Shown: positions 33,472-50,886 of the stretch, one piece after another | How the letters are laid out: every line of letters starts with the position of its first letter | How positions within the stretch are numbered: the first letter of the stretch is position 1 | Source of the DNA: an uncultured Pseudomonadales bacterium | GTDB lineage: Bacteria > Patescibacteriota > Microgenomatia > UBA1400 > MFAQ01 | DNA: 64,000 nucleotides | Assembly (NCBI GenBank): GCA_964357975.1 | Contig: CAYHNG010000002.1 | Location: 4,560-68,559, forward strand | Reading direction: 5' to 3' | The notes under the pieces: model-generated | Told to the model about the DNA's origin: nothing | What the model saw: only the letters and a program-made list of their open reading frames with translations | Databases searched by the model: none | Made by a program: the position numbers and the translations under genes

Positions 33472-34185
33472 TTATTTTCGGTGAAACCTTTGGGGGTGTT
33501 CGGTCTTGGTAATGGCGGTAGTGGAAGCTTCCCCTAGCATGGAGAAGAGTAGTTCCAGGTCGGACATGTGATCCCGGAGATTTTGTCTTTCCAATCCCTT
33601 TATCTGTTTGTGCTGTGAGGGAGTGACTCCAAAAGCGGCTTGGGAGATTTCGGCCGTAAGAATGGCATATTCCTTTTGGAGCTTGACTCCGTGAATTTCC
33701 CATTGTTCGGTGAGATCTTCACGAATAGCGATTGACCTTATGCGTTTTTCTATCCAACTATCGGGGTAGCCTTTGGCTTTGTAAATGGCTCTGGCTCTTT
33801 TTTGGGCGAGTTCCGGATCTTCTATTTCTTGAATTCTTTCGTAGCCGACTTTGGCCAGCCAACGCTTGAATGGTTCGGCTTTGGGAGAGGGGATCGATTG
33901 GATGATTCGGAAGATTGTTTCCGTGTTGGCACAATCTGTTTTGTACAGTTTTCCATCAGTGGAGGTTAGTTTCAGTTGTACGATTTTTTCGTACAACTCA
34001 GAATTACCTTCTTTGATAATTTTTATTTTTAAGTCACTCCAATATCTTCTCGGAATACTACTACCTGTAAGAGCGGTTATGACATCTGTGATGGAGAAGT
34101 ACCATTCATTTTTGTAAATGGTTTTGCGGATTTCTTTCTTCTGAAAAATAACGATCTTGGTAGGATCAATTACTTTTTTGGGCAT
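33472..34185 (-). CDS. DinD/Bro-N-like (phage antirepressor-type) protein
   Basis: EIRKTIYKNEWYFSITDVITALT...RYWSDLK pattern resembling Bro-N/DinD. Tentative. Confidence 0.45.
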   Translation of the reverse strand: MPKKVIDPTKIVIFQKKEIRKTIYKNEWYFSITDVITALTGSSIPRRYWSDLKIKIIKEGNSELYEKIVQLKLTSTDGKLYKTDCANTETIFRIIQSIPSPKAEPFKRWLAKVGYERIQEIEDPELAQKRARAIYKAKGYPDSWIEKRIRSIAIREDLTEQWEIHGVKLQKEYAILTAEISQAAFGVTPSQHKQIKGLERQNLRDHMSDLELLFSMLGEASTTAITKTEHPQRFHRK

Positions 34186-34995: not shown

Positions 34996-35448
34996 TTATT
35001 TGAGTTTGGGGAGGAGGGAGGAGAGATCGGCAAGAAGGTCGGGGTGAGGGGTGTCGAGGACGGAGCGCTTGGGGATGACCAGGTAATCGGCGGGGAGGAA
35101 TTGGGGGAGTAGTTCGGCTAAGAGGGCGGAGGTGACACGTTTGATGCGGTTGCGGTCGACGGCGAGACGGGCGGTTTTTTTGGACAATAGAATGGAAAAT
35201 CTAGGGACGAGGGGATTTGTCGTATGGAGACCTGCAAGGACTCTCCTTGCAGGAATGACGGAGGTTTGGGTGGAGTGAGATCTACCCCTTCGGGTACCAT
35301 CGGCCCCGACTGCGCTCGGGATGACAGAAGAGAGGGGGGTGGGGGCAGTGACGATGGTGAAGTGGCGGGTGTGGAAGGATCGGCCTTCACGGGTGAGACG
35401 ATCACGCTCTTTGCGTAGGGGAAGCCGGTTTGTGGCCGGAAGTGGCAT
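34996..35448 (-). CDS. rnpA: RNase P protein component, carrying about 33 aa of in-frame repeat-derived insertion
   Basis: LSKKTARLAVDRNRIKRV core. The extra segment SSVIPSAVGADGTRRGRSHSTQTSVIPARRVLAG is encoded by the composite family-A element A5. Confidence 0.75.
   Translation of the reverse strand: MPLPATNRLPLRKERDRLTREGRSFHTRHFTIVTAPTPLSSVIPSAVGADGTRRGRSHSTQTSVIPARRVLAGLHTTNPLVPRFSILLSKKTARLAVDRNRIKRVTSALLAELLPQFLPADYLVIPKRSVLDTPHPDLLADLSSLLPKLK
35231..35327. repeat. Family-A composite (long) element A5, inside rnpA
   Basis: CCTGCAAGGActcTCCTTGCAGG hairpin plus AATGACGG, then GGAGTGAGATCTACCCCTTCGGGTACCATCGGCCCCGACTGCGCTCGGGATGACAG. Confidence 0.65.
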
Positions 35449-35648: not shown

Positions 35649-35852
35649 ACACGTGACTGGTGAGTATTATACCTGATAAATGTCCGGAGCGAATGGATGG
35701 TAATTTTGATGGAGACCAATAAGGAACCTCCTCGCAGGACTACCTACAAGGAAGATCCTTGTAGGGGAGCTGGATTTGTGATGTGGATAGTATTATTCTT
35801 TTTGGGTAATTTGGGGGTTGTAAAAATGTGGATAAGTAGTGAGAATGGGCGT

Positions 35853-37235
35853 ATGGACAGTGAGAAGTTATGGCATAGCATTTGCGGTGAGTTGGGCGTT
35901 TCGATGTCTCCCGCCAGTTTTGCAGGCTTTATCAAGCCTTGTTTCTTGCGATCGGTAACTCCGATTGATGATCAACGACTGCTTTTGGAGTTGGCGGCTT
36001 CATCTGTTTTTTTGAGTCACACCATCGAGACCAAGTATTACAGTCTCATCAAACAAGCCGCCGAAAAAATTTCCGAAAAGAAGTGTGATATCGCTTTGAT
36101 TGTGGTTGAAGCTACCAAAGAAGTTAAGTTGAGTAAAAAGGAAATCAATAAGATGGGGGAGGTAAATGAGACCAGCATTGGACTATTTACCCCACAGGAG
36201 GAGAATAAACAAACCGGAACCAATCTGAATCCCCGTTATGTTTTTGAGTCATACATGGTGGGAAGTTCGAATAGACTGGCTTTCGCCGCCGCCAAAGCAG
36301 TGGTCGACTATCCCGGCACCAGACACAACCCACTATTTATCTATGGGGGAGTCGGGGTTGGAAAGACTCATTTGATGCATGCGGTAGGACATGAACTGGT
36401 CAAAAAAGGAGTGGGTAAAGTAGTCTGTGTGACAAGTGAACAGTTTACGAACGATTTGGTCGGTTCGTTTAAATCCAAAATGACGGATGCTTTTAAGAAA
36501 AAATATCGACAGGTAGGAGCATTGCTGGTAGATGATGTGCAGTTTTTTGGGGGAAAAGATTCAACACAAGAAGAGTTCTTCCATACCTTTAACGAACTGA
36601 CAAATAAACAAGCGCAGATTATCATGACGAGTGACCGAAAACCACAAGAGATCGTCGGTTTGGAGGATAGACTACGAAGCCGCTTCTTGGGTGGCATGAT
36701 GGTGGATATTGGTTTACCGGACTACGAGATGAGACTGGCGATTTTGCGGCAGCGAGCACTAGATATTAAAGCAGAAGTAGAAGATAGTGCCTTTGAACTA
36801 ATTGCCAATAGCTATCCAACAAATGCCCGCGAGCTGGAAGGAACTTTCGTCAGGCTAGCCACAGGTGCCAGTATTGACGGGGGAGTCTTAACCAGAGAAA
36901 TGGTACAGCAAACAATGGGACTTCCGGCCAATACTGTGAAAGACATTAAAGTGCGACCGATCAAGGTGATCTCGACAGTCGCCAAGTATTTTGATTTCAG
37001 AAACAAAGATCTCTTGGGGGAGAGTAGGAAGGCCGACTTGGTAGTGGCGAGACACATTGCCATGTATATTCTGAGAGAAACACTAAAGCTTAATCTGACT
37101 GAAGTCGCGGAGTTGATGGGAGGCCGAGATCATACTACAGTGATGCATGCATGCGAGAAAATGGAGCTAGAAATTGAGAAAAATATGGATATCAGGCGTA
37201 AAGTAATGGCTCTGAAACAGGCGTTATACACCTAA
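35853..37235 (+). CDS. dnaA: Chromosomal replication initiator DnaA
   Basis: Walker A GGVGVGKTHLMHAVG and C-terminal DNA-binding domain. Start set at MDSEKLW (35853) because the longer track ORF from 35697 contains DnaA boxes TGTGGATAG and TGTGGATAA and odd hydrophobic sequence. Confidence 0.8.
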   Translation: MDSEKLWHSICGELGVSMSPASFAGFIKPCFLRSVTPIDDQRLLLELAASSVFLSHTIETKYYSLIKQAAEKISEKKCDIALIVVEATKEVKLSKKEINKMGEVNETSIGLFTPQEENKQTGTNLNPRYVFESYMVGSSNRLAFAAAKAVVDYPGTRHNPLFIYGGVGVGKTHLMHAVGHELVKKGVGKVVCVTSEQFTNDLVGSFKSKMTDAFKKKYRQVGALLVDDVQFFGGKDSTQEEFFHTFNELTNKQAQIIMTSDRKPQEIVGLEDRLRSRFLGGMMVDIGLPDYEMRLAILRQRALDIKAEVEDSAFELIANSYPTNARELEGTFVRLATGASIDGGVLTREMVQQTMGLPANTVKDIKVRPIKVISTVAKYFDFRNKDLLGESRKADLVVARHIAMYILRETLKLNLTEVAELMGGRDHTTVMHACEKMELEIEKNMDIRRKVMALKQALYT

Positions 37236-37759: not shown

Positions 37760-38878
37760 TTGAATATGAAGATAACTGTATTGTCAACCGACTTAAAGAA
37801 ATATCTAGGAATTGTAAATCGAGGTATTGGGGTAAGACCTCAGCTGCCTATTTTGTCGGGTGTTCTTTTGAAAGTGACAAAGGAGGAAGTAAATTTGGTG
37901 TCGACTGACTTGGAAGTAAGTTTTTGGGTGAAACTACCGGCCAAGATAGATGAGGAAGGAGAGATGGTAGTACCGGCAAAGCTTTTTGGAGAATTGGTGG
38001 CCAGTTTGCCGGCTGGAAATGTAACTCTTTCGGCAGAAAAAAACACTTTAACAGTTTCCGCCAAAGGTATTAACGCAGAAGTTGTAGGACAAGGGGTGGA
38101 GGATTTTCCAAGTATTCCTAGAGCCAAAAAACCTCAAATTACCTTAAAGAGTGGAGATTTTAGACAAAAGATGGATCGGGTGTGTATTTCGGCGGCACGT
38201 GATGATACAAGACCGGTCTTGACCGGTGTCTTGTGGGAGTTGGAAGAGAATAAGACTATTTTGGCGGCGACAGATGGATACAGATTGGGAGTTGATAAAT
38301 TAAATGTTGGCAAAACAACTATTGAGAAGAACACCCGTTTTATTTTACCGGCACGATCTCTTCAGGAAATATCCAAAGTCCTGGCTGAGACAGGTGAGGA
38401 TAATTTTGGTATTGAATTTGACAAAGAAAATCAACAGGTGATCTTTACCATTGCCGATATGGAAGTCTCCTCCCGCCTGATTGCAGGCGAGTTTCCGCCC
38501 TATCAACAAATTATGCCGAATACTTACTCAACAAAGGCGGTATTTAACAGGGAAGAGCTACTAGAAGCGGTCAAGAGGGCCAATTTGTTTGCAAGGGACA
38601 ATGCCAATATTGTAAAAATGACCATCGAAGGTGAAAGACTAATTGTGAAAGCGGAAAGTAGTCAGCTTGGAAGCAATTCGACAGAGATCGAAACGGAAAT
38701 TGAAGGAGAAGGTTTGACCGTCGCTTTTAATGCCAGATATCTATTAGATTATCTGGGAGTGAACAATGCGGAGAGAGTGGTTTGGGAGACGGAAGGGGAA
38801 CTCAAACCAAGCGTCTTCAAGAGAGAGGATGATGACGGCTGGATTCAGGTAGTAATGCCGGTTAGGGTGCAGAATTAG
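37760..38878 (+). CDS. dnaN: DNA polymerase III beta sliding clamp
   Basis: MNMKITVLSTDLKKYLGIVNRGIGVRPQLPILSGVLLKV. Confidence 0.85.
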   Translation: MNMKITVLSTDLKKYLGIVNRGIGVRPQLPILSGVLLKVTKEEVNLVSTDLEVSFWVKLPAKIDEEGEMVVPAKLFGELVASLPAGNVTLSAEKNTLTVSAKGINAEVVGQGVEDFPSIPRAKKPQITLKSGDFRQKMDRVCISAARDDTRPVLTGVLWELEENKTILAATDGYRLGVDKLNVGKTTIEKNTRFILPARSLQEISKVLAETGEDNFGIEFDKENQQVIFTIADMEVSSRLIAGEFPPYQQIMPNTYSTKAVFNREELLEAVKRANLFARDNANIVKMTIEGERLIVKAESSQLGSNSTEIETEIEGEGLTVAFNARYLLDYLGVNNAERVVWETEGELKPSVFKREDDDGWIQVVMPVRVQN

Positions 38879-39875
38879 ACCAGGCTTCCGGTGGTAACTG
38901 TAACTGTGGGTAGATCCTGGTGATGGCCTGATCTTTTGAAAGTATCCAAACCAGACCTTTATTTTCCGAGAAAAGCACCATGTCGTTTTTTTGATTTACT
39001 GACGGTTTTATTTTCAGATTTAGTCTATTGATTTGTGAAGAGCTGGTGATAATTTGTTTGAATTGCTGTTTGCCGATATCGACCAACATGATGAAGTCGA
39101 GTAACCTTGGTTTGGTGACTTTTTCGACTAGATATAATTCGTCTTTTAGCCAAAAAGTGATAGATTCTTTGGTCGTATCGTCGAGCTTTATTTTGTTTAA
39201 TCCTTCGATATAAAGATACAAATACTCATTGTCTGTTGCGACGACGACCTTATTGTTTGAAGTGATTGAGATCGGATTGAACTGATTGGCTGTTTTAGCT
39301 ATCTCCGATTTTTGATTAGTGAGAAGGTTAACTACGTATAGTGATTTCTTGTCCTCAGACAAGGCGATAATCGAATTTGGTTTTTCGTACCAAATATAAC
39401 TAAAATACTCTCTTTCTTTTTGAGTGATGTCTTTTTCGACTAGAGTTTTCAAATTTAAAATTTTTTCTTTTTCAGGGGAGATTACCAAAGCCTCGCCATT
39501 GCTATTCAGGAGAGCAACTTCATTATTAGCAAGTTTTTTTATGGCTGTATTTGTGTAGGGGTTAAATATTTGTTGGTCCTTTATGACAATAGGAATATCA
39601 CCCATCCAACCTAATGATATGCTTTTATCTGAATTTGGAAGATGCCAAAACATAAACTGATACTGTTTCATGAACTTTTCAAACTCTGATTCGATTTGCA
39701 TAGTTGGTTGGACGGTAGGTTGCGTTTTTGTAGGTTCTAGAGGCTGGGGCGATGATGAAAATGGTTTGCGACTTTTGGTGAGGGTGTTTTGAGCGAATAG
39801 AATTAGTATGAGGAAGATAATTCCAATTACGATTATTAGCGTGGTTTTTTTGATTCGAGCTAGATTTAAGGACAT
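38862..39875 (-). CDS. Membrane-anchored extracytoplasmic protein; by position a PrgL/VirB8-like candidate
   Basis: N-terminal TM anchor, Pro-rich linker and beta-rich body. Translationally coupled (10-nt overlap) to the upstream hydrolase gene. No diagnostic motif. Confidence 0.35.
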   Translation of the reverse strand: MSLNLARIKKTTLIIVIGIIFLILILFAQNTLTKSRKPFSSSPQPLEPTKTQPTVQPTMQIESEFEKFMKQYQFMFWHLPNSDKSISLGWMGDIPIVIKDQQIFNPYTNTAIKKLANNEVALLNSNGEALVISPEKEKILNLKTLVEKDITQKEREYFSYIWYEKPNSIIALSEDKKSLYVVNLLTNQKSEIAKTANQFNPISITSNNKVVVATDNEYLYLYIEGLNKIKLDDTTKESITFWLKDELYLVEKVTKPRLLDFIMLVDIGKQQFKQIITSSSQINRLNLKIKPSVNQKNDMVLFSENKGLVWILSKDQAITRIYPQLQLPPEAWSNSAP

Positions 39876-42607
39876 TGTTGTTTGACTCGATTAATAAAAT
39901 AATCCAAAAATTCTACACCAGGATCATTCTTTCCCGGTCGTAATTCGTAATGCCCAAAGATCTGAGTGTAGGGAATATGGTACTGCTTCATCATAAAACA
40001 AGTAGAATTGACGGAAGACTGAATTTCTGCTTCACTGGGTGATTTTTCCTCCGGTTTGGTGGGAGATGTTCCGGGCGGAATAAACCAAGCTCCTACCATT
40101 TCATTGTTGAGACAGTAGTTATTTTCATTCCCCCCAACACAGTAGGCGAGCTCCGCCTTCTTTTCCCACATTTGTTGCCATTGCTGAACCGAGCCGTCTT
40201 GGTCGGTGCCAATTTGGCAAGAGAGACCCCTTTCTACAAGGGTATTGTAGGTGACATCATTGTTGGTCCAACCGCCACTCCAGTGGATGGTGATTTTGGT
40301 GGGGATGATACAGTAGCCGGATCTTCCTGGTCCAGTCAGAAGTTTTTTAACTACAGGGAATGATCCTGCCTGTACCATAATTTCGGCACCAGAGTCTTCT
40401 CCACAGTCCAGATTGTATACTCCACCACCAGGTTCTGTTCCTGGTCCCGGTCCACCACCCGGCCCTCCACCACCGCCATATTCTGCATAATCGACCTTAC
40501 TAAGACTATCGAATTGAACAATGGTGGAGAGGATGGGAGCAATTAAATAAGATATGGCAACATAAAGTCCTACGACAATGATAGCTCCGATAATGATACC
40601 TATGGCAGAAATCACGGCAATCTGGACAGATCTTCTGAGAATGATTAGTCCACGTATAAAAGTGGTCCCTGCGGTGACGGCGACCGCTCCTGCAGCAACG
40701 ACGGGAATAATCAAATCTCTAGATCTGAATTTGTCTCCCCAGCCCAGTTCTCTCCAAGTATTATCTAATCCTTTTTTGGCTAGACCGATGGTTTGTTCAG
40801 CAACAAAAATGATGGCTTGAATGGCAACATCAACGATGACTCCTAGTCCGGGAATAATGGCATTGAGAGACTCGGCCGTCACACTAATACCAAGCTTGAC
40901 AGCGGCCCAGGTAACGACTTTGACAGCCGCTTTGGAAAGAGCTTGAGAAGCTAGCTTTTTGACTCCATCTTTAAGACCCTCCCTCAACAACAGGTTAGGG
41001 GCATTTTTGAGAGCCTCACTCCCGAATCTTTCAACCAACCTCTTGGCTATTTGTTCGCCGGCTTTTTTACCGGCCCATTGTTTGAGAGATCCAACCGGGT
41101 TCGTAACTATACCGATGATTTGGTTGCCTTTACTTACAGCCTGAAGAACATCTTTGCCGAGTTTGGAGTTTTCTATCTCACGGATAGAGCGTCTGGCGGC
41201 TTGAAAAACTTTGGTATTGTTGGCGAGAAACTTAGCGGTAGCCGAATTGGGGTTGGTGGTGGCGTATTTTTCGGCTTGGCGAAGAACACTACCGGAAACT
41301 CCTTTGGAATAGGCCAGTATGGCCTGACCTTGACCTCCTCCAATGATGGCGGCGGCTTGGGCACCTTCATAACTGGCATACTGGTGAATTCCGGGAATGT
41401 CTTTTTGAATAACAGTGATCAGTCCGGCGATTTTGTCCAGATCCGAAAAACCTCTGGGTTCGATTCCTTTGCTCTTGAAGGCATTATCGTATAGATTCTC
41501 CTGGATCTTAAAAACTTTGTCGTTAGCAGCATTAGAGAATTCCAAGAGATCCTGGTCTTTTTTTTGATGATCGGCTATTGCCGAAGTGTGTTGTTTGTAT
41601 CTCTCTGATTGGGAGTCAACAAAATCAGTAAACCGGGTGGATGTTTTGTTGAGACTAGAGGTGAGACTAGAGTTGACTTTGAGCAATTCAGCAAGTTGTT
41701 TCTCTTCGGAAGCAGAAAGGGTGGCTTTTGAATGCAGAATATCGATGGCGGCTTCGTTTTGGGACAACTTATCTTCAATGTCTCTGATTTCCAGTTCGAT
41801 ATCATTAATTTCTTCAACTACTTCCGAGACAAAAGAAGTGGAAATATCTTTCACTCCTAGTTGAAGAGAAACTGTTTGAATAGCAACATCAAGATCGATG
41901 ATACCGATGGTGTTTAGTTCGACTGCCTGCGAAATTATTTGGTTTTGAAGATGTGGTGAGAGTTCTTCAAAACCTTCATAGGTAAAGGCTATACGCTGGA
42001 CAGCTTTGTAAGATGGTGCAAGTGTATTTTTTACTGAGCCATCTTTGGGTGAGCCGAGATCAACAATGGTTTTGTCGATATCACGAAATTTTTCTCCCGC
42101 CTCTTCGCGTTCACGGCGATTGGCCATGATTTGTTCGCGGATATTGGAATGAGCGAGAGCAATCTTGACTTGTTCGGCGACGGTGCGTTGACCACTGGAC
42201 TTAACCTCCTTTTCGTTTAACCGAGCTTGATTTTGACGATATTCTTCGACGAGACCTTCAATTTCCGGGGGAACAGAAGTCTCCTCCTTAACAGATTGTC
42301 TTCCTCCTTCTCCCTCGTCCTGATTTGAAAGCCAACTGTAGAAATTGATAATTTCTTGTATTTCAACAGCATCAGAAACAAACTTTTTAAAATTATTGGT
42401 GTTAACTAAATGATTTTCAACCAGAGAAGTGGGCCATAAAGTGATCTTTTTGTTGATCTTCTTAAGTTGTTTGAAATAGTTGTGGTAATAACCAGAGCCG
42501 ACACTAAACCATTGAAAGATATCATTCTGATTTTTTTCGGTTATTTCGCTTCGGAGTGCCTTTTGAACTTGTCCCAGCTCGTATATTTCTGTCTCGTAAT
42601 TGGCCAT
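39866..42607 (-). CDS. PrgK-like T4SS cell-wall hydrolase: long coiled coil, TM segments, Gly/Pro linker, C-terminal amidase_2/PGRP-like domain
   Basis: Central TM helices (VAAGAVAVTAG...IGIIIGAIIVVGLYVAI), a GGGGPGGGPGPG linker, and C-terminal ITIHWSGG...FGHYELRPGKNDPG (amidase_2-like). Sits immediately downstream of VirB4. Confidence 0.5.
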   Translation of the reverse strand: MANYETEIYELGQVQKALRSEITEKNQNDIFQWFSVGSGYYHNYFKQLKKINKKITLWPTSLVENHLVNTNNFKKFVSDAVEIQEIINFYSWLSNQDEGEGGRQSVKEETSVPPEIEGLVEEYRQNQARLNEKEVKSSGQRTVAEQVKIALAHSNIREQIMANRREREEAGEKFRDIDKTIVDLGSPKDGSVKNTLAPSYKAVQRIAFTYEGFEELSPHLQNQIISQAVELNTIGIIDLDVAIQTVSLQLGVKDISTSFVSEVVEEINDIELEIRDIEDKLSQNEAAIDILHSKATLSASEEKQLAELLKVNSSLTSSLNKTSTRFTDFVDSQSERYKQHTSAIADHQKKDQDLLEFSNAANDKVFKIQENLYDNAFKSKGIEPRGFSDLDKIAGLITVIQKDIPGIHQYASYEGAQAAAIIGGGQGQAILAYSKGVSGSVLRQAEKYATTNPNSATAKFLANNTKVFQAARRSIREIENSKLGKDVLQAVSKGNQIIGIVTNPVGSLKQWAGKKAGEQIAKRLVERFGSEALKNAPNLLLREGLKDGVKKLASQALSKAAVKVVTWAAVKLGISVTAESLNAIIPGLGVIVDVAIQAIIFVAEQTIGLAKKGLDNTWRELGWGDKFRSRDLIIPVVAAGAVAVTAGTTFIRGLIILRRSVQIAVISAIGIIIGAIIVVGLYVAISYLIAPILSTIVQFDSLSKVDYAEYGGGGGPGGGPGPGTEPGGGVYNLDCGEDSGAEIMVQAGSFPVVKKLLTGPGRSGYCIIPTKITIHWSGGWTNNDVTYNTLVERGLSCQIGTDQDGSVQQWQQMWEKKAELAYCVGGNENNYCLNNEMVGAWFIPPGTSPTKPEEKSPSEAEIQSSVNSTCFMMKQYHIPYTQIFGHYELRPGKNDPGVEFLDYFINRVKQQCP

Positions 42608-42609
42608 AG

Positions 42610-44514
42610 TTAGGGATTAGATGGCTCGGCGATTTCTTGGGGTTGGTCCTGAGAAGCGGCTTCGGCGGCGGCACGAAGTTTGTCTTGCTTTTGCCGTTCA
42701 AGAATCTCAGCCGGCTTACTGGTAGCCAGAGCGTGTTCATCAGCAGAGGAAATAATTTTGATGGCCACGTGATTCATGCCAGCAAAGAAGATACCTTCTC
42801 CAACGCCGGCCGAAAGAAGTAATTGTTTCTCCCCTTGAGAGAGATAGAAGACTTCGGAGATTTGATTGATAGCGGCGGATGACTGTTTGAGTAGTAATTT
42901 GAGAGCCGAGTTGGTGATGATGGCTTTGCCGTAGGCTGAACCCAGAAAGTCGTCAACGTTTTGTGAAATGATGGAAACACCGAAGTAATACTTACGTGCG
43001 CGTTTGACAAAGCCTTGAAGGATTTTGGCTGAATCTTCATAGCGCATCAAGTACCAAGCTTCATCAACGACGAGCATTCTTTTGCGAAGATTTTTGCGAA
43101 CTTCGTTCCAAACAAAGTCCAAAATCATAAACATAATGATGGGCCGAATCTCATCGGCGGTATCCCGGAGGGTAAAAACAGTAATGGGAGCATTGATATC
43201 AATATTGCTCTGCTGATCGAAGATACCTTTGACGGCACCCATGACGAAACGTTCAAGCCTGGCGGCTAGTGTTTTACTAACAGCTTCTTCCATACCGATC
43301 AGGGAACGATAAAGATCTTCCATGCGTGGTGGTTCGAGAGTGTGAGTGGATGGGTCTTCGGTAATGCCTTTTTGGCGATAAGTGAGAACAAGAGCGCGGT
43401 TCATGGTAGCTTCTTCAATGGGATCCATTTGACCAATCATGATTTTGAGAAGAGACATGAGGAAAAGGTATTTGTAGCCCATTTCGTCTTCGGTACTCTC
43501 TTTGGGTCGAGCAATTTGGAAGGGATTAATTTTGTGGGAGGCGCTGGCCGAAAAAGAGAGGTAGTTACCACCGACCGATTTGGTGACCATTTCGTACTCG
43601 TTTTCAGGGTCGAGAATAATTACCTGGCAATCGAACATAAGAGATCGAAGAATCTCGAGCTTAACAGCAAAAGATTTTCCGGCACCGGAAGTGGCTAAAA
43701 TGAGCATGTTAGCATTTTCGAGGGAGAAACGGTCGAAAATAACGAGAGAGTCGTTATGGGCGTTGATCCCGTAAAGAATTCCTTGATTATCGGAGAGTTC
43801 GGAGGAAGTAAAAGGGAAAGTCGTGGACAGAGCAGTGGTGTCCATATTTCTTGTGAGCATAAGTTTATCCTTGCAATAGGGAAGAGTGCTTTTGAATGCA
43901 TCTTCCATTGAGAGGGATGCAATCTTGCTGATGATTAAAAGTGACGCCAACATAGATTGAATTTGGGCGGTAGAGGTATCCAATTCTTTTTCGGATTCGG
44001 CGGAGATGCTGACATAGAGTGAGAATTGAAAAAACTTCTCGGCGCCTTTGACAAGCTGAGATTGGAGAACTTTGGCGTCTTCGAGACCGGCTTCGGTAGC
44101 GGCACGAGGAATGCGACCTCGTTCGATATCGGTGTTTATTTCAGCTTCCATCTCGGCAATACGGCGGCGTAAACTATCGAGAGTATCTTTGGAGTCTGAG
44201 GGGTAGATAAACATGGAAATGTCCAAAGAGTGGTTGAAGTTGATTAAAGGAGAGAGCCAGTTGGCGGAAACGTAGCGAGGATAACCGGTGACAAAAAGAG
44301 TACGGATATAAACATCGTCAATTTTGATGTGAGAAAAATCGACTTCAACGGCAGAAGGGGCGATAATATCTTGGATAGATTGACTAGAAGCGGCGGATTT
44401 TTGATCTACAGTTGAGGGAGTAGCTTGCGTGACATTAGAAACCGGCGGGGTGACGGGTGTAGAGGTAGCCGGTACGCTTTGTTTTTTGCCAAGAGAAAAA
44501 AGGTTCAAAGCCAT
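42610..44514 (-). CDS. VirB4/PrgJ/TrbE-family T4SS ATPase
   Basis: Walker A ILATSGAGKSFA, ILDPENEY and Walker B MLVVDEAWYLM (the DEAW hallmark), with a VirB4-like N-terminal domain. Confidence 0.75.
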   Translation of the reverse strand: MALNLFSLGKKQSVPATSTPVTPPVSNVTQATPSTVDQKSAASSQSIQDIIAPSAVEVDFSHIKIDDVYIRTLFVTGYPRYVSANWLSPLINFNHSLDISMFIYPSDSKDTLDSLRRRIAEMEAEINTDIERGRIPRAATEAGLEDAKVLQSQLVKGAEKFFQFSLYVSISAESEKELDTSTAQIQSMLASLLIISKIASLSMEDAFKSTLPYCKDKLMLTRNMDTTALSTTFPFTSSELSDNQGILYGINAHNDSLVIFDRFSLENANMLILATSGAGKSFAVKLEILRSLMFDCQVIILDPENEYEMVTKSVGGNYLSFSASASHKINPFQIARPKESTEDEMGYKYLFLMSLLKIMIGQMDPIEEATMNRALVLTYRQKGITEDPSTHTLEPPRMEDLYRSLIGMEEAVSKTLAARLERFVMGAVKGIFDQQSNIDINAPITVFTLRDTADEIRPIIMFMILDFVWNEVRKNLRKRMLVVDEAWYLMRYEDSAKILQGFVKRARKYYFGVSIISQNVDDFLGSAYGKAIITNSALKLLLKQSSAAINQISEVFYLSQGEKQLLLSAGVGEGIFFAGMNHVAIKIISSADEHALATSKPAEILERQKQDKLRAAAEAASQDQPQEIAEPSNP

Positions 44515-44543: not shown

Positions 44544-45194
44544 TTAGGAGGCGTTTGATCTTCCTGGAGTGATTGCCTGAGTAACACTGCCTTGATTGTA
44601 GATAGTATAAAAGAGAGTGACCAATTCACTGGTAGTTAGCTGGTTAGCCTTAAGACCGATCCTGGCGAACTGACGAATAATGTGATCGCGTCTGGGGTAG
44701 AGAGCCATAGAAGCTTTCTCTTCGATATACTGCAGATCGAAAGGAGGTTTTTGGGGTGATTTGGATAGAGGATTGAAGCTGGATTTGGTCAGACCCAGTT
44801 CGACCGCAGAGAAAGAGACGATAACGTAAAACTTTTTTTCGAGGACACGATTTTCTTTGACAAGAGACTTTACAAATTGCCGATAGGAAAGAAGCTGTTC
44901 TTTAACCTTCTGCGAAGGGGTAATCTGGATACGATTATCCAGAAGGTTAATGTAATCGGATATATTTTTGCGCTGTGATCTGATGAGAATTTGAATAGAG
45001 AAAGACAGCGAATTTAACAAACCGGCATAGCCGTAAATGGTAGCATCTTGCTCTTCTTCGGAAAGCAAATTGAAGTTGATGGCAGTGGTTTTGAGAACCA
45101 ATGAACAAGAACCATCTTTCAAAAAAATCAAATGGTTTTTGATGGTGTAGATGTCTAGGCTTTCCTGTGTTGAGGATTTGATGTTTTCGGACAT
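44544..45194 (-). CDS. T4SS-associated hypothetical protein (216 aa)
   Basis: Tightly packed between the PrgI-like gene and VirB4. No motif recognised. Confidence 0.4.
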   Translation of the reverse strand: MSENIKSSTQESLDIYTIKNHLIFLKDGSCSLVLKTTAINFNLLSEEEQDATIYGYAGLLNSLSFSIQILIRSQRKNISDYINLLDNRIQITPSQKVKEQLLSYRQFVKSLVKENRVLEKKFYVIVSFSAVELGLTKSSFNPLSKSPQKPPFDLQYIEEKASMALYPRRDHIIRQFARIGLKANQLTTSELVTLFYTIYNQGSVTQAITPGRSNAS

Positions 45195-45196: not shown

Positions 45197-46201
45197 TTAG
45201 ATGGCTTGAATTTTAAGAGGTCGAATAATGGCTCCGGAAAGGTCGAGAGAGTATGGGGAAAAAGTAAAATCTTCTTTTTCGGCCAGGATTTGATAAAGGC
45301 CATTTTCCAAAGGGCGGGCAAACATAAACTGGCCGAGTTTGTTACTTTTGGTAGCTCGGGAGGTGAGTCCGTTGTGTTGAATTTCCACCAGGACTCCGTC
45401 GAGAATTTTTCCTTCCGGGGTCAGAGTCAGGCCGACAAGAGTGTTGGGGGTCGTAGGGGTGAAAGGAATGGGGAGCTGGGCTACTTGGGAAGTTGTTGGT
45501 TCAGGGTTGCTGGTTATTTCAACCACAGGCTGATCTGCCTTTGGCTGAGGTGCGGGTGTGATGGAGGGGGATTTCTCCACTACGGTCGAAATGACGGGAG
45601 TGACTGACGCGGTGGGGGTGGGTGTAACGGATTCCGGTAGAGGAGCATTTGGGGTGATGATGACAGGAGTGATTTGGACAACGGGGGGTGACGTAATAGG
45701 GGTTGTGGAGTGAGATTCCTCCACTCGGGTACCAGCGGCCTCCGCTCCCGCCTGCAAAAGCTGTGCTTTAGTGTCTGCGGGCAAGTCGGTCGGAATGACA
45801 GATGGGGAAGTATCGGTGACACCAGTAGAGAGCTCGATACGAGCGTTAGAGACGGCTTGAGTACCAATATTGGGTCCGGTAGGTAAGGCCATATCCTCAT
45901 CTACTACTTTGGAATGTCTCCAAATATATTGAGTAGGTGAATAAATTGAGCGGATAAAAGCAAGAATCCAGACATCCAAAGAGCGTCCTTGAACCGGGAC
46001 AAAAGCCATACCTACTCCAAGAACAATAAAAAGAAAGGAGAGTGGATACTTAAAGAAGAAAGGCAATGGCAAACTGTAAATTACGATAGCCAGAACAATA
46101 GAGATGCCAAGTGAGGCGAACTGTTTGATGGTCATGTCACCGATCAGGCGGAAGCGGTAGGAACTGATGTCTTGTGGTAGTGGATGTTGTTGGATGGCCA
46201 T
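45197..46201 (-). CDS. PrgI/VirB3-like two-TM protein with long Pro/Thr-rich extracellular tail; contains two in-frame family-A repeats
   Basis: N-terminal FRLIGDMTIKQFASLGISIVLAIVIY...LSFLFIVLGVGMAF (PrgI-like two-TM module). The tail includes the repeat-encoded segments TPVISTVVEKS and SVIPTDLPADTKAQLLQAGAEAAGTRVEESHS. Confidence 0.45.
   Translation of the reverse strand: MAIQQHPLPQDISSYRFRLIGDMTIKQFASLGISIVLAIVIYSLPLPFFFKYPLSFLFIVLGVGMAFVPVQGRSLDVWILAFIRSIYSPTQYIWRHSKVVDEDMALPTGPNIGTQAVSNARIELSTGVTDTSPSVIPTDLPADTKAQLLQAGAEAAGTRVEESHSTTPITSPPVVQITPVIITPNAPLPESVTPTPTASVTPVISTVVEKSPSITPAPQPKADQPVVEITSNPEPTTSQVAQLPIPFTPTTPNTLVGLTLTPEGKILDGVLVEIQHNGLTSRATKSNKLGQFMFARPLENGLYQILAEKEDFTFSPYSLDLSGAIIRPLKIQAI
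45562..45600. repeat. Family-A repeat, copy A7 (in frame inside the PrgI-like gene)
   Basis: GGAGGGGGATTTCTCCACTACGGTCGAAATGACGGGAG. Confidence 0.65.
45705..45800. repeat. Family-A long variant, copy A8 (in frame inside the PrgI-like gene)
   Basis: GTGGAGTGAGATTCCTCCACTCGGGTACCAGCGGCCTCCGCTCCCGCCTGCAAAAGCTGTGCTTTAGTGTCTGCGGGCAAGTCGGTCGGAATGACAG. Confidence 0.7.
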
Positions 46202-46506
46202 GTCGTAGTGCGAAGTGCTTGGTTATTGGTTGCTGGTTCGATGAGTCTAGTTAAGTATATCTTGTCTGGTGGAATTTGGGAAAAATATTCTATATATCTG
46301 CTGAGTTAAAATGTTAAGATGAGAGTGAGATGCAATTTTTGTTGTGCAATTACAGATGGAAAGTTTGGAACAAGTTTTTTTATCGGGAGTTCGATGATGA
46401 TCTGGACTACGATGCATCAATTGATCCTCGCAAACTACATAATAAAAAAAGAACAAAGAAGAAATTTGAGGGGGGGAAAAAGGGAGGAGTTAAACGAGGA
46501 GAAGAG

Positions 46507-48579
46507 ATGCTGGTGATGGACAGTCAAGAACCTGCTGTGGAAGAAGTAAATAAACCTAAGACAAGAAGTGTTGTGCGGTTGGAACAAATGGGGTTTTCAA
46601 GTAGTGAGAGTGGAAGCAGCTTGGAGCGAGCGTTGGCGTTCGACGTTCTTGCTAGAGTATTGGCCTTACCCGAAGGAACAGTTTTGAAGCTGGAAATTCC
46701 AGTAATAAAAGAAGGGGAGAGAGTTGTTGAAACACAGGATATTGAATTGAATTTAGAAGCTTTTCGAGAGGATAAAGATGGTGAAATTTTTAAAGCTCTA
46801 GCGCGCCATTTTTGGCAAGATCTAGCCGCGCACGGGATCGAACAGGCTTCAAAGGAAGTGGGTCAACAACCAAAAATGTTACAGTATTCCGATGCGGACG
46901 GAGAACTTTGCTTGAGGTTTATGAGGGAAGCTGGGATAAAAAGTCCAGGTATCGAGTATGTAAAAAAAGGTGATCATGCCACTGGAAAAGTCACGGTGGA
47001 CAGTGGAGGTAAAAACGGTATCTTTGTCGAACTAAATTGGGTTGGAAATCCTGGAGAAGAAAGATGGGTGGTAACGACAAGGGTTGATCACCACGGTGAA
47101 GGTGACGACGCTAGTCCAAGCGCCGCGGAGATTATTTACAAGGCGCTAGTAGGTTTGGGTCTGTTGGAGAGTAAGGTCAGCTACGAAAAAGCGGTTGAAT
47201 TTTTGAACGCTACAGATAGTGGAAATATTCCTGGAGTTTTGAGTAAAGAAGAGATGCCAAATTATTTTAAGAATAAGTTTGCAAAATCTTTGTATGGCTT
47301 GCAAGAATTCTTAACAGGAGAAGACATAATAACAGTATTTAAAATGAACGGAAAGCCTCTTGAAGAGTTATCTCCAAAACAGAAGGAGGCTATTAAGACA
47401 AAAGGTTTTACCAAAGCAAAAGAAGGTGAAACAAAAATTGACAAAAGAATTGCGCAAGTCCAAGAGAAGGTTAATAAATCAATTACGGCAATAGAGAAGT
47501 TGATTGCAGAAGGTTGTGTGCTGGAGACGGAAAAGTACGGACGCATTCTAGTGGATATTGGAGGAACGGTTCCTTTGACAGCTAGAGCGGCGAGACTAAT
47601 GGGATTTGATGGATATATAAATTGGAAGCCGGAAGATAAGTTTTTTATGGTAGTGGCTGATAATAAAATTGATTTTGATTTAAAAGATGGTATTAAAGTC
47701 AGAAATATGTGGATCAAGAAAGATGGTGCCGGGTTGGAGATTGGCTTGGGAGATATTGTGAAGGAAATGAAAGGTGAAAAGGGAAGGCTTGGAAAAGGCT
47801 TGGAAACTTATTTGGGTGTGACTGCTGCGACAGAAGAGACTAAAGCTAAGGAAAGACTGGTTTGGTATGACGAGATTTTGGAGGATTTGGATAAGATTAC
47901 ACTGTTGGACGATGAAATGGTCGTTAATGGAGAAAGGCTACGAGAGGGTATGTATTCTGGTCAAGAGGATGCATTAATAATAAAAATGGATGAAGTCCGC
48001 CGTGATACAGCCGCGAAACTCAGAAAGAAGGGGATTAAACTGGAAACACTTTCGATAGATCCGAACAGAGTAAAAGAATACAAACTTCGAAGAGACTTAC
48101 GGGCGGCGGTGGAGTATTTGAGAGAGGAAAATGTTTCACAGGAGGCGAGGGAAGTTTGGAAGACTAGGGCAGAAGCTGTTGTGTTTTTGAATGGAATTGG
48201 CATAGGGGATCGTGTTGGAGTGGATTACTTGCCGGATTCTGAGGATGCGAAGGAGGTGAAAGAGGCAGTGTCCGTGCCTGTGACTGAAAATAAAGAGGAG
48301 AGAAAGGCTAGGATTGAAAATATGTTAATCCAACTATCCGAGCTGGGTGATGCAGGTGGGGAAAGGGAGGCTATTTTAGCCTCGTTGGAAGCTGAAGGGA
48401 TAAAGGTAAGGAAGTTCTTGGCGGATATGGAGAAAGCCGCACCTGGTAAATCTAAGGACTTGATGCTGCAACTTAGAGCCGTAGTAGAGGTTTGGAGGAT
48501 GAGTGAAGTAAAAAAAGCCGAGTTTCCCGCCATGACGAAGATTGCTGGTGCCTACGCACGCTTGTTGGGTCTTGGGTGA
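46507..48579 (+). CDS. Large charged hypothetical protein (about 690 aa from the preferred start), T4SS-linked orphan
   Basis: Long ORF with high coding quality. The ATG at 46507 is preceded by GGAGGAG...GAGGAG. The track start at 46330 gives a Lys-rich, unlikely N-terminus. Confidence 0.5.
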   Translation: MLVMDSQEPAVEEVNKPKTRSVVRLEQMGFSSSESGSSLERALAFDVLARVLALPEGTVLKLEIPVIKEGERVVETQDIELNLEAFREDKDGEIFKALARHFWQDLAAHGIEQASKEVGQQPKMLQYSDADGELCLRFMREAGIKSPGIEYVKKGDHATGKVTVDSGGKNGIFVELNWVGNPGEERWVVTTRVDHHGEGDDASPSAAEIIYKALVGLGLLESKVSYEKAVEFLNATDSGNIPGVLSKEEMPNYFKNKFAKSLYGLQEFLTGEDIITVFKMNGKPLEELSPKQKEAIKTKGFTKAKEGETKIDKRIAQVQEKVNKSITAIEKLIAEGCVLETEKYGRILVDIGGTVPLTARAARLMGFDGYINWKPEDKFFMVVADNKIDFDLKDGIKVRNMWIKKDGAGLEIGLGDIVKEMKGEKGRLGKGLETYLGVTAATEETKAKERLVWYDEILEDLDKITLLDDEMVVNGERLREGMYSGQEDALIIKMDEVRRDTAAKLRKKGIKLETLSIDPNRVKEYKLRRDLRAAVEYLREENVSQEAREVWKTRAEAVVFLNGIGIGDRVGVDYLPDSEDAKEVKEAVSVPVTENKEERKARIENMLIQLSELGDAGGEREAILASLEAEGIKVRKFLADMEKAAPGKSKDLMLQLRAVVEVWRMSEVKKAEFPAMTKIAGAYARLLGLG

Positions 48580-48615: not shown

Positions 48616-50886
48616 ATGACTGAACACAATGAAGCCACGAACGAACATGAAGAGGAGAGAATTGCGGAGAGTTTGGCTGATCCGGCCGCACAGGCAGAGG
48701 CGACAAGGATAATAGGTCAGGTGAATGTGGTGCCGGAGGCTCGTAAGAAATCTTATATAGACAAAGTATTGGATATGCCAGCAGGTGAAAAGCGTGACGC
48801 GTTGTTGGCAGGATGGCTGGATAAACACGGGGAGGAGGCCGATGAAGGCCTGCAGGGGCGGGTGTTCGCGGCCATAGGGCAGAGAGAGGCGGCTCTTCCT
48901 CCAGTGATTGACTGGTCCAGAGCAGAAGAAAGTTTTGAAAAGTTAATAAGCCCCACTTCATACGGTGGTAACCCAGAACAAAAGAAAGCTGCGGCAGATA
49001 GATGGTTGGATTTATACGGTCGACATGAAAGTGTTACAGTTGAGATGCGCGAGCAGTTGGAGAAAATAATTAATCCAGAAACCGAATTTTCGGATGATCT
49101 AAAAGAATGGATTAGAAATTATTGTCTGGAAAGTGTTTTTGAAAGAGGTGAAAGAAACTATCGAACAATATTAGGTTCACTTGTAAATATGGGTGGCGCC
49201 CTTGATGCTGAACGTAATATTCCTTTAGATAAAATTAATCTTCTGAAACCGCAAATTCAAGAGCTAGTGGAAGCTTTGGGTTTGGATAATTTTATTAGTA
49301 TTCGAGGAGTTGTAAGTGAGTGGGACGGCCTGAAGAAACTGGAGGAAATTACCTCTTCAACATTGAAATCAGCTTTGTTTGTACCAGAATATACAGAACG
49401 TTGGGTTGAGGGTGACTATGATAAGGATGACAACCGAATCGGTGATCGGATGGTCACCTTGCCGGGTGAGAATGGAGTGGCAAAAAACATGCAAGAAGAG
49501 GTAAGTAAAGGTATCTTGGCCCTTAAAAACTTTTTTGACAACAATGAATATTGGGATTTTGTGGGTGTGTCAGCAGACAAAAGGACAAAACTCTATAAAC
49601 AATTAGGATTAAATAAATATGTCGGTGAGGTGGCGTTTGCAATGGGAATGTCAAATTTAATCTTTACCGAAACTAAAGGTACAAGTTTGGATCCGTTTTT
49701 GTTTATGGTTCACGGAGATACCAAAAGGAGAAAATCCAGAGAGGTTGCTGTGGACAGAGAGGTAACAGCAATGGCTTATGTGCAATTTCAAATGGCAAAC
49801 AAAGACAAAAGCCCTAGCCCGGATGAAATTGAGGTTTGGCTTTCCCAACACTTTCCTAGCCATCTGATTCCCACTGGACTCTCGGCGGGAGGAATGGCGG
49901 CATTGGAGAATGGAAACTGGTTGAAATGGAGGGTACAAGAGAACCTTTTTTCAGCATCTCAGAGAGCGATAGATATTACTTATGAAACAAATAAAGATTA
50001 TTGGATAGCCATTGCAAATGCAGGATTTGACGTTGGTGGGGTGATTGTAAAATGGACGGCGGATGAAGTTCAGTTAGAGTACGATAGAAAGAAAAGAAGA
50101 ACAGTAATTGGAGCCAAGGGGAGATTGACAGAGGATGAGGGAAAGATGAAGGGCCAAAAAGCGATTGAGAAACAAAAAGATAAGGAGTGGAAGGCATTAG
50201 TCAATGCTGTTTCCGAGTCGCCAGAAGTGCAGATAGCAACAGATACTGAATCAAGAATAGAAGAAATGAAAACGGCTTTGGATTTACTTGTAGCTTTGAA
50301 GGAGGCCTTAAGACCAGAATCGGATATAGATAAATTGGCCGCTCTAAAGTCCAAGAGTCTTATTCACTGGAAAACATCCATGAAAGCAGCTGGACGAGTC
50401 GATGTAAAAGATATGGTAAGCGAAGAATTTTCTTTTATTCCGGGACAAAAACAGAGTGTAGATGAATGGGTGTCAACAGCAATGTTAACTTCATGCCAAT
50501 CATGGTTGCATGCACATTCGATTGCAAACTTCAAGAACCCTAAGCCACTCGATATGAAGACACTGGCGGAGAAAATGGAACAAATATTAGCTACGGATGT
50601 ACAAACTCCAGACATACAGGCTTATATTTGGACCGGAAAAGATACTGAGAAAACAGAACCTCTGTTGGCAAACAAAAGAGCGTACATTGATTACGCTACA
50701 GATCTCTGGGAGGACTGTTTCGACGTGATCGATAAAATAACGAGGAATGTCACGCCAGATAAATATCCAAAATGGTGGCGTTCTGGTGTGAGTGCAGCAT
50801 CAGGGATAGCAGATCTGGCTGCTAAATCATCCCCATTCTATCCACTGTGGAATACTATAGCGAAAAGACTAAGAAACAGAGCATAG
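48616..50886 (+). CDS. Large acidic hypothetical protein (756 aa), T4SS-linked orphan
   Basis: Long ORF with no TM helices or recognisable motif. Co-directional with 46507-48579. Confidence 0.5.
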   Translation: MTEHNEATNEHEEERIAESLADPAAQAEATRIIGQVNVVPEARKKSYIDKVLDMPAGEKRDALLAGWLDKHGEEADEGLQGRVFAAIGQREAALPPVIDWSRAEESFEKLISPTSYGGNPEQKKAAADRWLDLYGRHESVTVEMREQLEKIINPETEFSDDLKEWIRNYCLESVFERGERNYRTILGSLVNMGGALDAERNIPLDKINLLKPQIQELVEALGLDNFISIRGVVSEWDGLKKLEEITSSTLKSALFVPEYTERWVEGDYDKDDNRIGDRMVTLPGENGVAKNMQEEVSKGILALKNFFDNNEYWDFVGVSADKRTKLYKQLGLNKYVGEVAFAMGMSNLIFTETKGTSLDPFLFMVHGDTKRRKSREVAVDREVTAMAYVQFQMANKDKSPSPDEIEVWLSQHFPSHLIPTGLSAGGMAALENGNWLKWRVQENLFSASQRAIDITYETNKDYWIAIANAGFDVGGVIVKWTADEVQLEYDRKKRRTVIGAKGRLTEDEGKMKGQKAIEKQKDKEWKALVNAVSESPEVQIATDTESRIEEMKTALDLLVALKEALRPESDIDKLAALKSKSLIHWKTSMKAAGRVDVKDMVSEEFSFIPGQKQSVDEWVSTAMLTSCQSWLHAHSIANFKNPKPLDMKTLAEKMEQILATDVQTPDIQAYIWTGKDTEKTEPLLANKRAYIDYATDLWEDCFDVIDKITRNVTPDKYPKWWRSGVSAASGIADLAAKSSPFYPLWNTIAKRLRNRA

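Follow-up and report, generated by a model that had tools for sequence, protein, structure and literature searches.

A VirB4-adjacent candidate wall amidase of a chromosomal Patescibacteria type IV secretion locus belongs to a family with interchangeable enzyme tails and type-specific partner genes

Introduction

In monoderm bacteria, the VirB1-like enzymes of type IV secretion systems (T4SSs) consist of a part inside the cell, an anchor in the membrane and a hydrolase on the outside, and the passages drawn on here from the 2025 T4SS review give only SLT, MUR, CHAP and LytM domains for such hydrolases, with no amidase among them (PMC12857230). Here we describe a gene that lies in a 64-kb stretch of DNA from contig CAYHNG010000002.1 (the window, by which we mean this whole stretch), directly behind the gene for a VirB4-like ATPase, and that encodes a 913-amino-acid (aa) protein ending in an Amidase_2 domain. 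Like PrgK of pCF10, TraG of pIP501 and CwlT/Orf14 of ICEBs1/Tn916, this protein belongs to a T4SS operon and combines a membrane anchor with an enzyme predicted to lie outside; with PrgK, which has a LytM (M23-like) domain in the same passages, it also shares the slot directly after the VirB4 gene and an intracellular N-terminal part (PMC12857230). It differs from these enzymes in that (i) it has a single enzyme domain, of the Amidase_2 type, and a predicted intracellular module of about 575 aa without detectable relative; (ii) it has three hydrophobic helices instead of one; and (iii) its enzyme is polymorphic, is followed by a type-specific gene and is encoded on a chromosome, with no relaxase found nearby.

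The chromosomal T4SSs of Patescibacteria offer the other close comparison. They are described, in the passages on which we draw, as MPF-FATA-like, located beside dnaA and without a relaxase (Quinonero-Coronel et al. 2025, PMC12102498), and the locus presented here resembles them in its MPF-FATA-like character and in having VirB4 and a PrgI-like VirB3 protein encoded by dnaA, dnaN and rnpA (PMC12102498, PMC10633639). No substrate is known for these systems, and yet in the one tractable species epibiotic growth requires the T4SS (Wang et al. 2023, PMC10633639). According to the same passages, VirB1 homologues rarely adjoin virB4 in Patescibacteria and 'other' hydrolases might substitute for them, VirB8 homologues are mostly undetectable, and a VirB6-like subunit is reported as undetectable in Microgenomatia (PMC12102498); in S. 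epibionticum, non-VirB1 'peptidase and lysozyme homologues' encoded directly 3' of virB4 are reported to be essential (PMC12102498; PMC10633639). The N-terminal module, the alternative tails, the Amidase_2 variant and the co-varying partner that we report below are not described in these passages.

Results

The 913-aa protein is encoded by an open reading frame (ORF) on the minus strand, with an ATG start that lies 2 nucleotides (nt) past the stop codon of the VirB4 gene, and a protein from a 110-kb public contig (P0001) is 100% identical to it. Its parts, and the gene that follows it, are these:

39866..42607, minus strand: whole 913-aa gene, a putative T4SS-associated, membrane-anchored modular hydrolase (ORF list; same slot after VirB4 in related loci)
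40883..42607, minus strand: conserved all-alpha N-terminal module, aa 1-575, predicted to be cytoplasmic (AlphaFold2, AF2; family profile; no Cys)
40511..40870, minus strand: membrane region, aa 580-699, with transmembrane (TM) segments TM1 at about 580-608 and TM2 at about 632-657, an RRS loop and a long TM3 at about 661-699 (Kyte-Doolittle scan)
40508..40540, minus strand: junction motif APILSTIVQFD, aa 690-700, with which sequence conservation ends ahead of the variable tail
40421..40477, minus strand: Gly/Pro-rich flexible linker, aa 711-729 (sequence)
39866..40420, minus strand: predicted extracytoplasmic Amidase_2 domain, aa 730-913, with the Pfam core, aa 770-897, at 39917..40300 (Pfam, PHROG, catalytic residues)
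38862..39875, minus strand: cognate partner, 337 aa, with a signal-anchor at aa 11-29, a Pro/Thr-rich linker and an ectodomain of about 280 aa (hydropathy, homology)

Rather than being a fixed oddity, the Amidase_2 tail represents one allele within a cassette system. A profile of aa 1-710 retrieved 92 representative proteins, 81 of them with E<=1e-10 and most of them 800-1050 aa long, and in this family a consensus junction, AP-x-x-S-T-L-V-Q-[LF]-D, closes the last hydrophobic helix, directly after which the tails diverge. P691 is nearly invariant in 79 sequences, while A690, P691, S694, V697 and Q698 are invariant in 15. All-vs-all BLAST clustering of 79 tails, followed by Pfam scans of representatives, yielded six clusters that correspond to unrelated enzyme types:

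Peptidase_M23 tails: 54/79, with the catalytic HxxxD in 52/54 and HxH in 54/54
Peptidase_C39_2 tails: 6/79, above the Pfam cutoff
Cys/His tails, CHAP/NlpC-P60-like: 6/79, weak matches only
HExxH type 1 tails: 8/79, motif and weak matches
HExxH type 2 tails: 2/79, motif and weak matches
Amidase_2 tails: 3/79 (the window protein, P0020 and P0021), 33-35 bits

In 33 of the 79 members, the tail is of another type than that of the protein closest in core sequence; P0020 and P0023, for example, are 88% identical in their cores, the first ending in an amidase and the second in a CHAP-like domain. Judged by these tails, any bond-cleaving enzyme seems to serve in the slot.

The gene that follows the tail varies with it. 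In the window, the ATG of this partner gene lies inside the last codons of the hydrolase gene (10-nt overlap), and its GC content is 0.365, versus 0.447 for the window. Its product is homologous to those of the genes 3' of other amidase-type members (44%, 1e-93; 61%, 2e-77) and shares no similarity with the 335-aa protein that fills the equivalent slot of the Collierbacteria locus L001, which is of the M23 type. When the downstream proteins of 12 distinct loci, representing five tail types, were compared by all-vs-all BLAST, the resulting matrix was block-diagonal by tail type in 12/12 loci:

Amidase_2 tail: 3 loci, partner of about 338 aa (one partial)
M23 tail: 4 loci, partner of 326-369 aa
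C39-like tail: 2 loci, partner of 151 and 153 aa
CHAP-like tail: 2 loci, partner of 133 and 146 aa
HExxH tail: 1 locus, partner of 194 aa

Metagenome loci retrieved with the amidase-type partner as the seed gave the same picture from the other side, since an amidase-tailed family member stands immediately upstream in 9/9 of them, and no mismatch between tail type and partner type was seen in any locus examined. Amidase and M23 partners are unrelated in profile-profile comparison (probability 0.7%). The only cross-type similarity is a marginal one (hhalign 83%, E 9e-6) between the partners of C39-like and CHAP-like tails (L015:7783-8238, L018:6733-7194, L016:7685-8125 and L019:6727-7128), and this marginal likeness parallels the papain-like nature that their enzymes share. 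Partners diverge faster than tails, with identities of 20-28% where M23 tails have 34-56% and of 36-60% where amidase tails have 72-80%, and within a type they stay homologous over deep divergence and on different N-terminal backgrounds. The partner proteins gave no significant Pfam/NCBIfam match, and no match to a known immunity or regulator family; the homologue in L008 showed weak beta-propeller matches (DPPIV_N 2.4e-4; Beta-prop_THOC3), and a pyocin-immunity match at 0.012 was non-significant. Neither orphan cassettes nor extra partner genes were found in the 64-kb window.

Comparison with L001 delimits what has been exchanged:

38879..40783, minus strand: replaced cassette, comprising aa 609-913 (TM2-TM3, linker and amidase) and the whole partner gene, without nucleotide similarity to L001

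The genes on both sides of this 1.9-kb block are 80-82% identical to L001 in nt and 92-97% in aa sequence, no identity is detectable inside it, and its boundary falls exactly at the 3' end of dnaN. In the L001 genome, the equivalent slot, between flanking proteins that are 92-97% identical, carries an M23 tail. Sliding-window identities along the 913-aa protein follow the same division: aa ~100-600 are nearest to the M23-type Collierbacteria protein P0002, at up to 98% (the genomic baseline); aa ~600-700 (TM2-TM3) are ~80% identical to P0020 and P0027 and ~40% to P0002; and the tail is 84-94% identical to that of the amidase-type P0020. On these alignments the enzyme domain, together with TM2-TM3 and the partner, is a recombining cassette. 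Linkage alone could yield co-transfer, the block lying between two conserved recombination anchors; it does not explain either the unrelated partner families or their lasting pairing with one enzyme type across deep divergence. The preliminary description of this DNA, which was made by a model from the letters alone, had missed the swappable cassette and its type-specific partner, which a simple housekeeping wall-breacher would not predict, and had set the protein apart as carrying Amidase_2 rather than M23. This holds for the window protein and not for the family, most orthologues being of the M23 type.

Mosaic structure is also found outside the cassette. The extreme N-terminus (42290..42560, aa ~16-106) is 60-72% identical to P0005/P0020/P0003 versus 20-38% to P0002 and has no nucleotide similarity to L001, and aa 176-375 are also well under the baseline. 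The PrgI-like protein (45197..46201, minus strand) is 65% identical to its Collierbacteria orthologue versus a baseline of 92-97%, and its gene holds a stretch, 45519..45814, without nucleotide similarity, a second variable segment in the operon.

The C-terminal domain is predicted to be a catalytically intact zinc amidase of the AmpD type. Pfam Amidase_2 (PF01510) matches aa 770-897 over model positions 6-130 of 131, and at 33.1 bits (E=8.3e-8) the match exceeds the curated cutoff, which is 26 bits; the tails of P0020 and P0021 score 35.4 and 35.0 bits, and PHROG 1794, an endolysin-type 'amidase', matches aa 764-909 at 2e-7. SLT, muramidase and CHAP domains gave no match to the 913-aa protein in Pfam, NCBIfam or PHROGs, and VirB1-type profiles gave none either. 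The two motifs on which the preliminary description had based its Amidase_2 assignment are both present, at aa 772 (ITIHWSGG) and aa 884 (FGHYELRPGKNDPG), and the assignment is borne out. The predicted catalytic residues are:

40283-40285, minus strand: H775
40100-40102, minus strand: E836
39950-39952, minus strand: H886
39929-39931, minus strand: K893
39923-39925, minus strand: D895

All five are invariant in a MAFFT alignment of 14 tails, namely that of the window, 7 further family members or fragments and 6 related short or fragmentary proteins. They align with H34/E116/H154/K162/D164 of AmpD, and H775/H886/K893/D895 align with H17/H122/K128/C130 of T7 lysozyme; the position of T7 Tyr46 is Cys797 in the window protein and Ala in AmpD. 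Alignment of the tail profile by hhalign with AmpD (E 0.08) and T7 lysozyme (E 0.9) was weak and served for the register only, with which MAFFT agreed. The zinc triad is thus intact, although as His/His/Asp (H775, H886 and D895, the AmpD type) and not as the His/His/Cys that had been expected. What the domain shares with AmpD, AmiD and the phage enzymes PlyL and XlyA is this triad, with Glu and Lys in the AmpD register, and a GH-x6-K-x-DPG motif; it differs from them in being a divergent, narrow subtype fused to a T4SS membrane module.

Structural searches with the tail gave weaker matches. An AF2 model built from 5 sequences has a pLDDT of 56, too low for zinc-site geometry, and the top PDB matches of this low-confidence model in Foldseek were PlyL and XlyA (E ~0.03-0.3, TM ~0.3-0.39), which for a model of this kind is suggestive of an amidase fold, not decisive. 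A PDB sequence search with the single tail returned only chance matches to designed armadillo repeats, and with a 5-sequence tail profile the best relevant match was 7f5i, an 'amidase', at E=0.12. The subtype is rare, with about a dozen close relatives among 5.8 billion sequences (the profile search gave 8), and is marked by six conserved Cys and an extra N-terminal subdomain of ~40 aa.

The same rare subtype is also present in short single-TM proteins (L005:8001-8900; P0015, P0105 and P0108; 269-299 aa), of which P0108 sits in a housekeeping setting beside secE-nusG-rplK. Such stand-alone single-TM amidases are plausible donors of the tail. A stand-alone 229-aa Peptidase_M23 protein (2.2e-27), ~30% identical to the M23 tails of the family, is encoded in the window at 7874..8563 (plus strand), so that an M23 enzyme is retained in this genome outside the T4SS slot, which itself holds an amidase.

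The N-terminal region of the 913-aa protein has no domain match in Pfam or NCBIfam, in keeping with the earlier statement that it lacks an enzymatic motif. AF2, run on aa 1-710 with 83 sequences of the family, gave a model that has a mean pLDDT of 83.7, with 483 residues at 90 or above and values mostly >90 over aa 1-560, and contains only helices up to ~aa 570, with long ones at 139-169, 258-378 and 504-571. The picture of a coiled-coil-rich N-terminal part of some 600 aa is therefore roughly right for aa 258-378, the region being elsewhere simply all-alpha. Neither the PDB (best E 0.39) nor the viral protein structures of BFVD (best E 0.026, TM-score ~0.1) yielded a significant structural match to this model. 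The two or three TM helices proposed before correspond to the three hydrophobic segments listed above, and AF2 places membrane helices, at low confidence, at 588-620, 630-653 and 661-700. The Gly/Pro linker is also present and reads GGGGGPGGGPGPGTEPGGG, with one Gly more than had been written; it is similar in P0020 and absent in P0021, and is thus not a conserved feature.

We infer a topology with three TM segments, a cytoplasmic N-terminus and an extracytoplasmic tail. This orientation is favoured because Cys residues are split 0 in aa 1-710 versus 7 in aa 711-913, because every tail type in the family is Cys-rich and because the TM2-TM3 loop is Arg-rich; an external tail is also favoured because the partner is a signal-anchored ectodomain protein.

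The genes that accompany the cassette are as follows:

35697..37235: dnaA
37760..38878: dnaN
42610..44514, minus strand: VirB4-like ATPase, 634 aa, immediately upstream of the 913-aa gene (P-loop_TraG 3.8e-27, AAA_10, DUF87, CagE_TrbE_VirB)
44544..45194, minus strand: TraC-like protein, 216 aa (a syntenic 94%-identical orthologue carries PF26593 TraC-like)
45197..46201, minus strand: PrgI-family (VirB3-like) membrane protein, 334 aa (Pfam PrgI 1e-8, one TM-like segment)
50893..52731, minus strand: polytopic membrane protein, 612 aa, with ~8-9 hydrophobic segments (hydropathy; no Pfam match)

VirB4 is 95% identical to its L001 orthologue, and the Pfam scan of the window's own 216-aa TraC-like protein gave no match. 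The product of 50893..52731 may be a VirB6-like channel subunit, its membership in the system being suggested by position; with this separate polytopic protein nearby, we rejected the 913-aa protein as a VirB6 equivalent. The order PrgI, TraC-like, VirB4, 913-aa gene, partner and convergent dnaN-dnaA is kept in all related loci examined, and in all of them the N-terminal module of ~700 aa occurs only in this slot, 2-10 nt behind VirB4. Among the window ORFs that were scanned there was no relaxase, and the cluster contains no further gene for a VirB1-like enzyme (SLT, CHAP, MUR). The neighbourhood is that of a chromosome origin, with dnaA, dnaN, rnpA, yidC and jag, and with genes for glycolysis, tRNA synthetases and chaperonins farther out; VirB4, the TraC-like protein, DnaA, DnaN, YidC and Jag are 92-97% identical to proteins of Candidatus Collierbacteria metagenome-assembled genomes (Patescibacteria, Microgenomates). 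The T4SS is thus a chromosomal, origin-proximal system of Patescibacteria (Ca. Collierbacteria) and does not belong to a plasmid, an integrative and conjugative element or a prophage; it is not a conjugative element, and here the preliminary description has to be corrected. The PrgK-like position after VirB4 that it proposed stands, given the order PrgI-like, TraC-like, VirB4 and 913-aa gene; in pCF10, the order is prgI-prgJ-prgK-prgL. Its reading as a PrgK/VirB1 analogue is also supported by the architecture, the predicted intracellular part, the anchor and the predicted external hydrolase being as in monoderm VirB1-like enzymes in the passages cited above (PMC12857230).

Other genes of the window deserve mention. 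A 1159-aa protein (12082..15561, minus strand) carries TrwB_AAD_bind, TraG-D_C and T4SS-DNA_transf matches (aa ~344-662) and a C-terminal NUDIX domain (aa 889-1019); this unusual fusion of a type IV coupling protein (T4CP) with NUDIX lies 27 kb from the T4SS cluster and is the only T4CP-like gene in the window. Three large ORFs without significant Pfam match lie at 46330..48579 (plus strand, 749 aa), 48616..50886 (plus strand, 756 aa) and 53376..56561 (minus strand, 1061 aa), the first two without TM segments and the third with an N-terminal anchor, and large unannotated genes like these also flank the cluster in related loci. At the origin, RnpA (34996..35448, minus strand) has 150 aa versus 129 aa in L001 and is 69% identical, far under the baseline of the neighbouring genes, and a Bro-N protein is encoded between rnpA and yidC (33472..34185, minus strand), as one is at the equivalent place in other Collierbacteria loci; Bro-N domain proteins are typically phage-associated. 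YidC/60KD_IMP proteins are encoded twice: the divergent paralogue (16218..17021, minus strand; 1e-12) adjoins an SPFH/Band_7 gene, and the canonical paralogue (31785..32522, minus strand) lies at the origin. Genes related to the envelope include those for a VanW + PG_binding_4 protein (19456..21183, plus strand) and for a 907-aa DUF4012 protein (26756..29479, minus strand), the latter kept at the equivalent position in related loci.

Discussion

What, then, does a wall-hydrolase slot with interchangeable enzymes and matching partners do? We give an even chance to the reading in which the gene encodes the wall hydrolase in the PrgK/VirB1 position of a chromosomal T4SS of the Gram-positive type, accompanied by a type-specific inhibitor or regulator. 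The VirB4-adjacent slot, the architecture of a monoderm VirB1, the intact catalytic residues and the lack of another VirB1-like gene in the cluster all support it, and we also count in favour of an own-wall hydrolase that there is one copy per locus and that the linker is short. The protein would then be a functional and positional analogue of VirB1 and not a member of its family. In the mechanism that we envisage, the all-alpha cytoplasmic module of ~575 aa would probably attach the protein to the machine that contains VirB4, and the three hydrophobic helices ending in the junction motif would place the C-terminus outside the membrane. This tether would hold the amidase within roughly 10 nm of the membrane and so limit cleavage of the bond between N-acetylmuramic acid and L-Ala to the vicinity of the channel. 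There, with H775, H886 and D895 as predicted zinc ligands, E836 as the predicted base and K893 as a further conserved residue, the enzyme would strip peptide stems from the glycan strands of the cell's own peptidoglycan, and the removal of stems would open the wall for a channel or pilus. Given how strictly the two co-vary, we consider it most likely that the 337-aa partner associates with the enzyme domain and curbs or steers its activity; autolysis would thereby be prevented. All these functional statements are computational and concern an uncultivated lineage.

Several points weigh against this reading. A hole-puncher is not obviously in need of a dedicated, type-specific partner, and to our knowledge no characterised Gram-positive VirB1-like enzyme has a co-varying one; nor is it obvious why a housekeeping hole-puncher should be exchanged between genomes with 92-97% identity elsewhere. 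The incongruence between core and tail in 33/79 members resembles diversification driven by conflict, and the HExxH and C39-like tails are not established peptidoglycan hydrolases. On the structural side, the N-terminal module has no structural relative and its docking role is only predicted, the pLDDT of 56 makes the AF2 model of the amidase domain a low-confidence one, and a simple hydropathy scan can also give four segments, which would place the tail inside.

A tentative alternative, to which we grant clearly less, is that the locus is a polymorphic effector-immunity module mounted on the T4SS: the N-terminal and TM part would dock or deliver, the tail would be the warhead, released or presented at the contact site, where it would cut the wall, or the surface, of either the host bacterium or competing epibionts, and the partner would be the immunity protein that shields the wall of the producer. 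Five sets of observations speak for it. (i) A conserved N-terminus is followed, after a conserved junction, by at least six unrelated types of C-terminal enzyme, which is the anatomy of the polymorphic toxin-immunity systems (CdiA-CT/CdiI, Rhs, LXG; Zhang et al. 2012, PMC3482391). (ii) As in those systems, the cognate downstream gene evolves faster, and here it matches the tail type in the 12/12 typed loci and in the 9/9 loci found through the partner. (iii) The cassette has been replaced between near-identical genomes and is incongruent with the core in 33/79 members, and the co-swap of a cassette with its matching partner is a pattern usual in toxin-immunity systems. (iv) The two genes are translationally coupled and the partner is predicted to be extracytoplasmic, where immunity to a wall hydrolase must act, so that its location suits wall-acting enzymes. 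(v) The T4SS of Patescibacteria has no relaxase and is needed for epibiotic growth, for which reason protein delivery is suspected in the passages drawn on here (PMC10633639). The locus departs from the polymorphic toxin systems in having membrane helices before the variable domain, in occupying a slot of the core T4SS operon and in showing no orphan modules in the window. A toxin of the LXG type, secreted by a type VII secretion system, was considered and rejected, there being no Pfam match.

There are precedents for wall hydrolases that act between cells. Xanthomonas and Stenotrophomonas reportedly deliver peptidoglycan hydrolases through a T4SS and protect themselves with periplasmic immunity proteins, and the X-Tfe/X-Tfi pairs of Xanthomonas differ from ours in that X-Tfes are soluble and have a C-terminal secretion signal, while the window protein is a predicted membrane subunit. 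In the nanotubes of B. subtilis, the donor delivers the amidase LytC with its enhancer LytB (PMC7176660). That pair is alike in uniting an N-acetylmuramoyl-L-Ala amidase with a dedicated partner from the same operon at a conduit through cell walls, and is unlike in its Amidase_3 fold, in being secreted and wall-bound, in standing outside any T4SS and in showing no cassette polymorphism (PMC7176660). One argument against a delivered effector is reach: behind three helices and a linker of ~20-50 aa, an uncleaved tail cannot arrive at the wall of another cell, and neither a cleavage site nor a secretion signal was identified in the 913-aa protein. Moreover, orphan cassettes and extra immunity genes were lacking in the 64-kb window, exactly one copy is present per locus, in the slot of the own-wall hydrolase of a monoderm T4SS, and linkage alone could explain the co-variation, the block lying between conserved recombination anchors.

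That last point leads to an unlikely third possibility, namely that the partner has no functional link with the tail and is a fast-evolving T4SS accessory, for example a PrgL-like stand-in for VirB8 or an adhesin, exchanged with the tail by linkage because both are situated between the conserved N-terminal region and dnaN. On each side, the replaced block ends exactly where conserved sequence begins, no partner matches a known immunity or regulator family, and the partner occupies the position of PrgL and has a PrgL-like bitopic topology, as PrgL is presented in the passages cited (PMC12857230), in a group in which VirB8 homologues mostly escape detection (passages of PMC12102498). Mere linkage is, however, hard to square with partners whose size differs by tail type (133-369 aa), with amidase and M23 partners that are unrelated (0.7%) while homology within a type persists across deep divergence, and with the fact that the sole cross-type likeness (hhalign 83%) parallels the relatedness of papain-like enzymes; in the loci examined, no tail of one type stands with a partner of another.

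We regard it as most improbable that the protein is a housekeeping wall amidase, an autolysin of growth or division that merely adjoins T4SS genes: stand-alone single-TM relatives do occur in housekeeping settings (P0108; P0015 and P0105 are similar short proteins), yet these lack the 700-aa N-terminal module, which in the loci examined is found only in the post-VirB4 slot. Tape-measure proteins likewise are long, consist of helices, include hydrophobic stretches and may end in a hydrolase, and the architecture is superficially similar; the idea of a phage tape-measure or prophage lysis protein, which the preliminary description had itself named as the outcome that would overturn its claim, is nevertheless refuted, since the only PHROG match is the amidase domain, the tape-measure proteins among the BFVD matches are non-significant (E 0.03-1.5, TM-score ~0.1), neither module has relatives in 2.9 million viral contigs, and the neighbours are all housekeeping or T4SS genes (dnaA, dnaN, rnpA, yidC, jag, VirB4, PrgI).

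The wall-hydrolase slot of a T4SS from the candidate phyla radiation (CPR) holds a modular family with a large, structurally unprecedented domain that is predicted to be cytoplasmic, and, if the protein is the wall hydrolase of its own machine, Amidase_2 adds a fold beyond the T4SS-associated hydrolases listed in the passages cited from the 2025 review (PMC12857230). The pairs of tail and partner are concrete, testable sets for biochemistry, and they provide a candidate handle on how ultrasmall monoderm epibionts pass a secretion channel through their own wall or that of their host. Should the effector-immunity alternative be true, a CPR T4SS would have in these tails its first candidate class of substrates, interchangeable warheads would serve Collierbacteria and related Microgenomates to open the host envelope or to fight other epibionts, and the turnover of cassettes between near-identical genomes would record an arms race with hosts or rivals.

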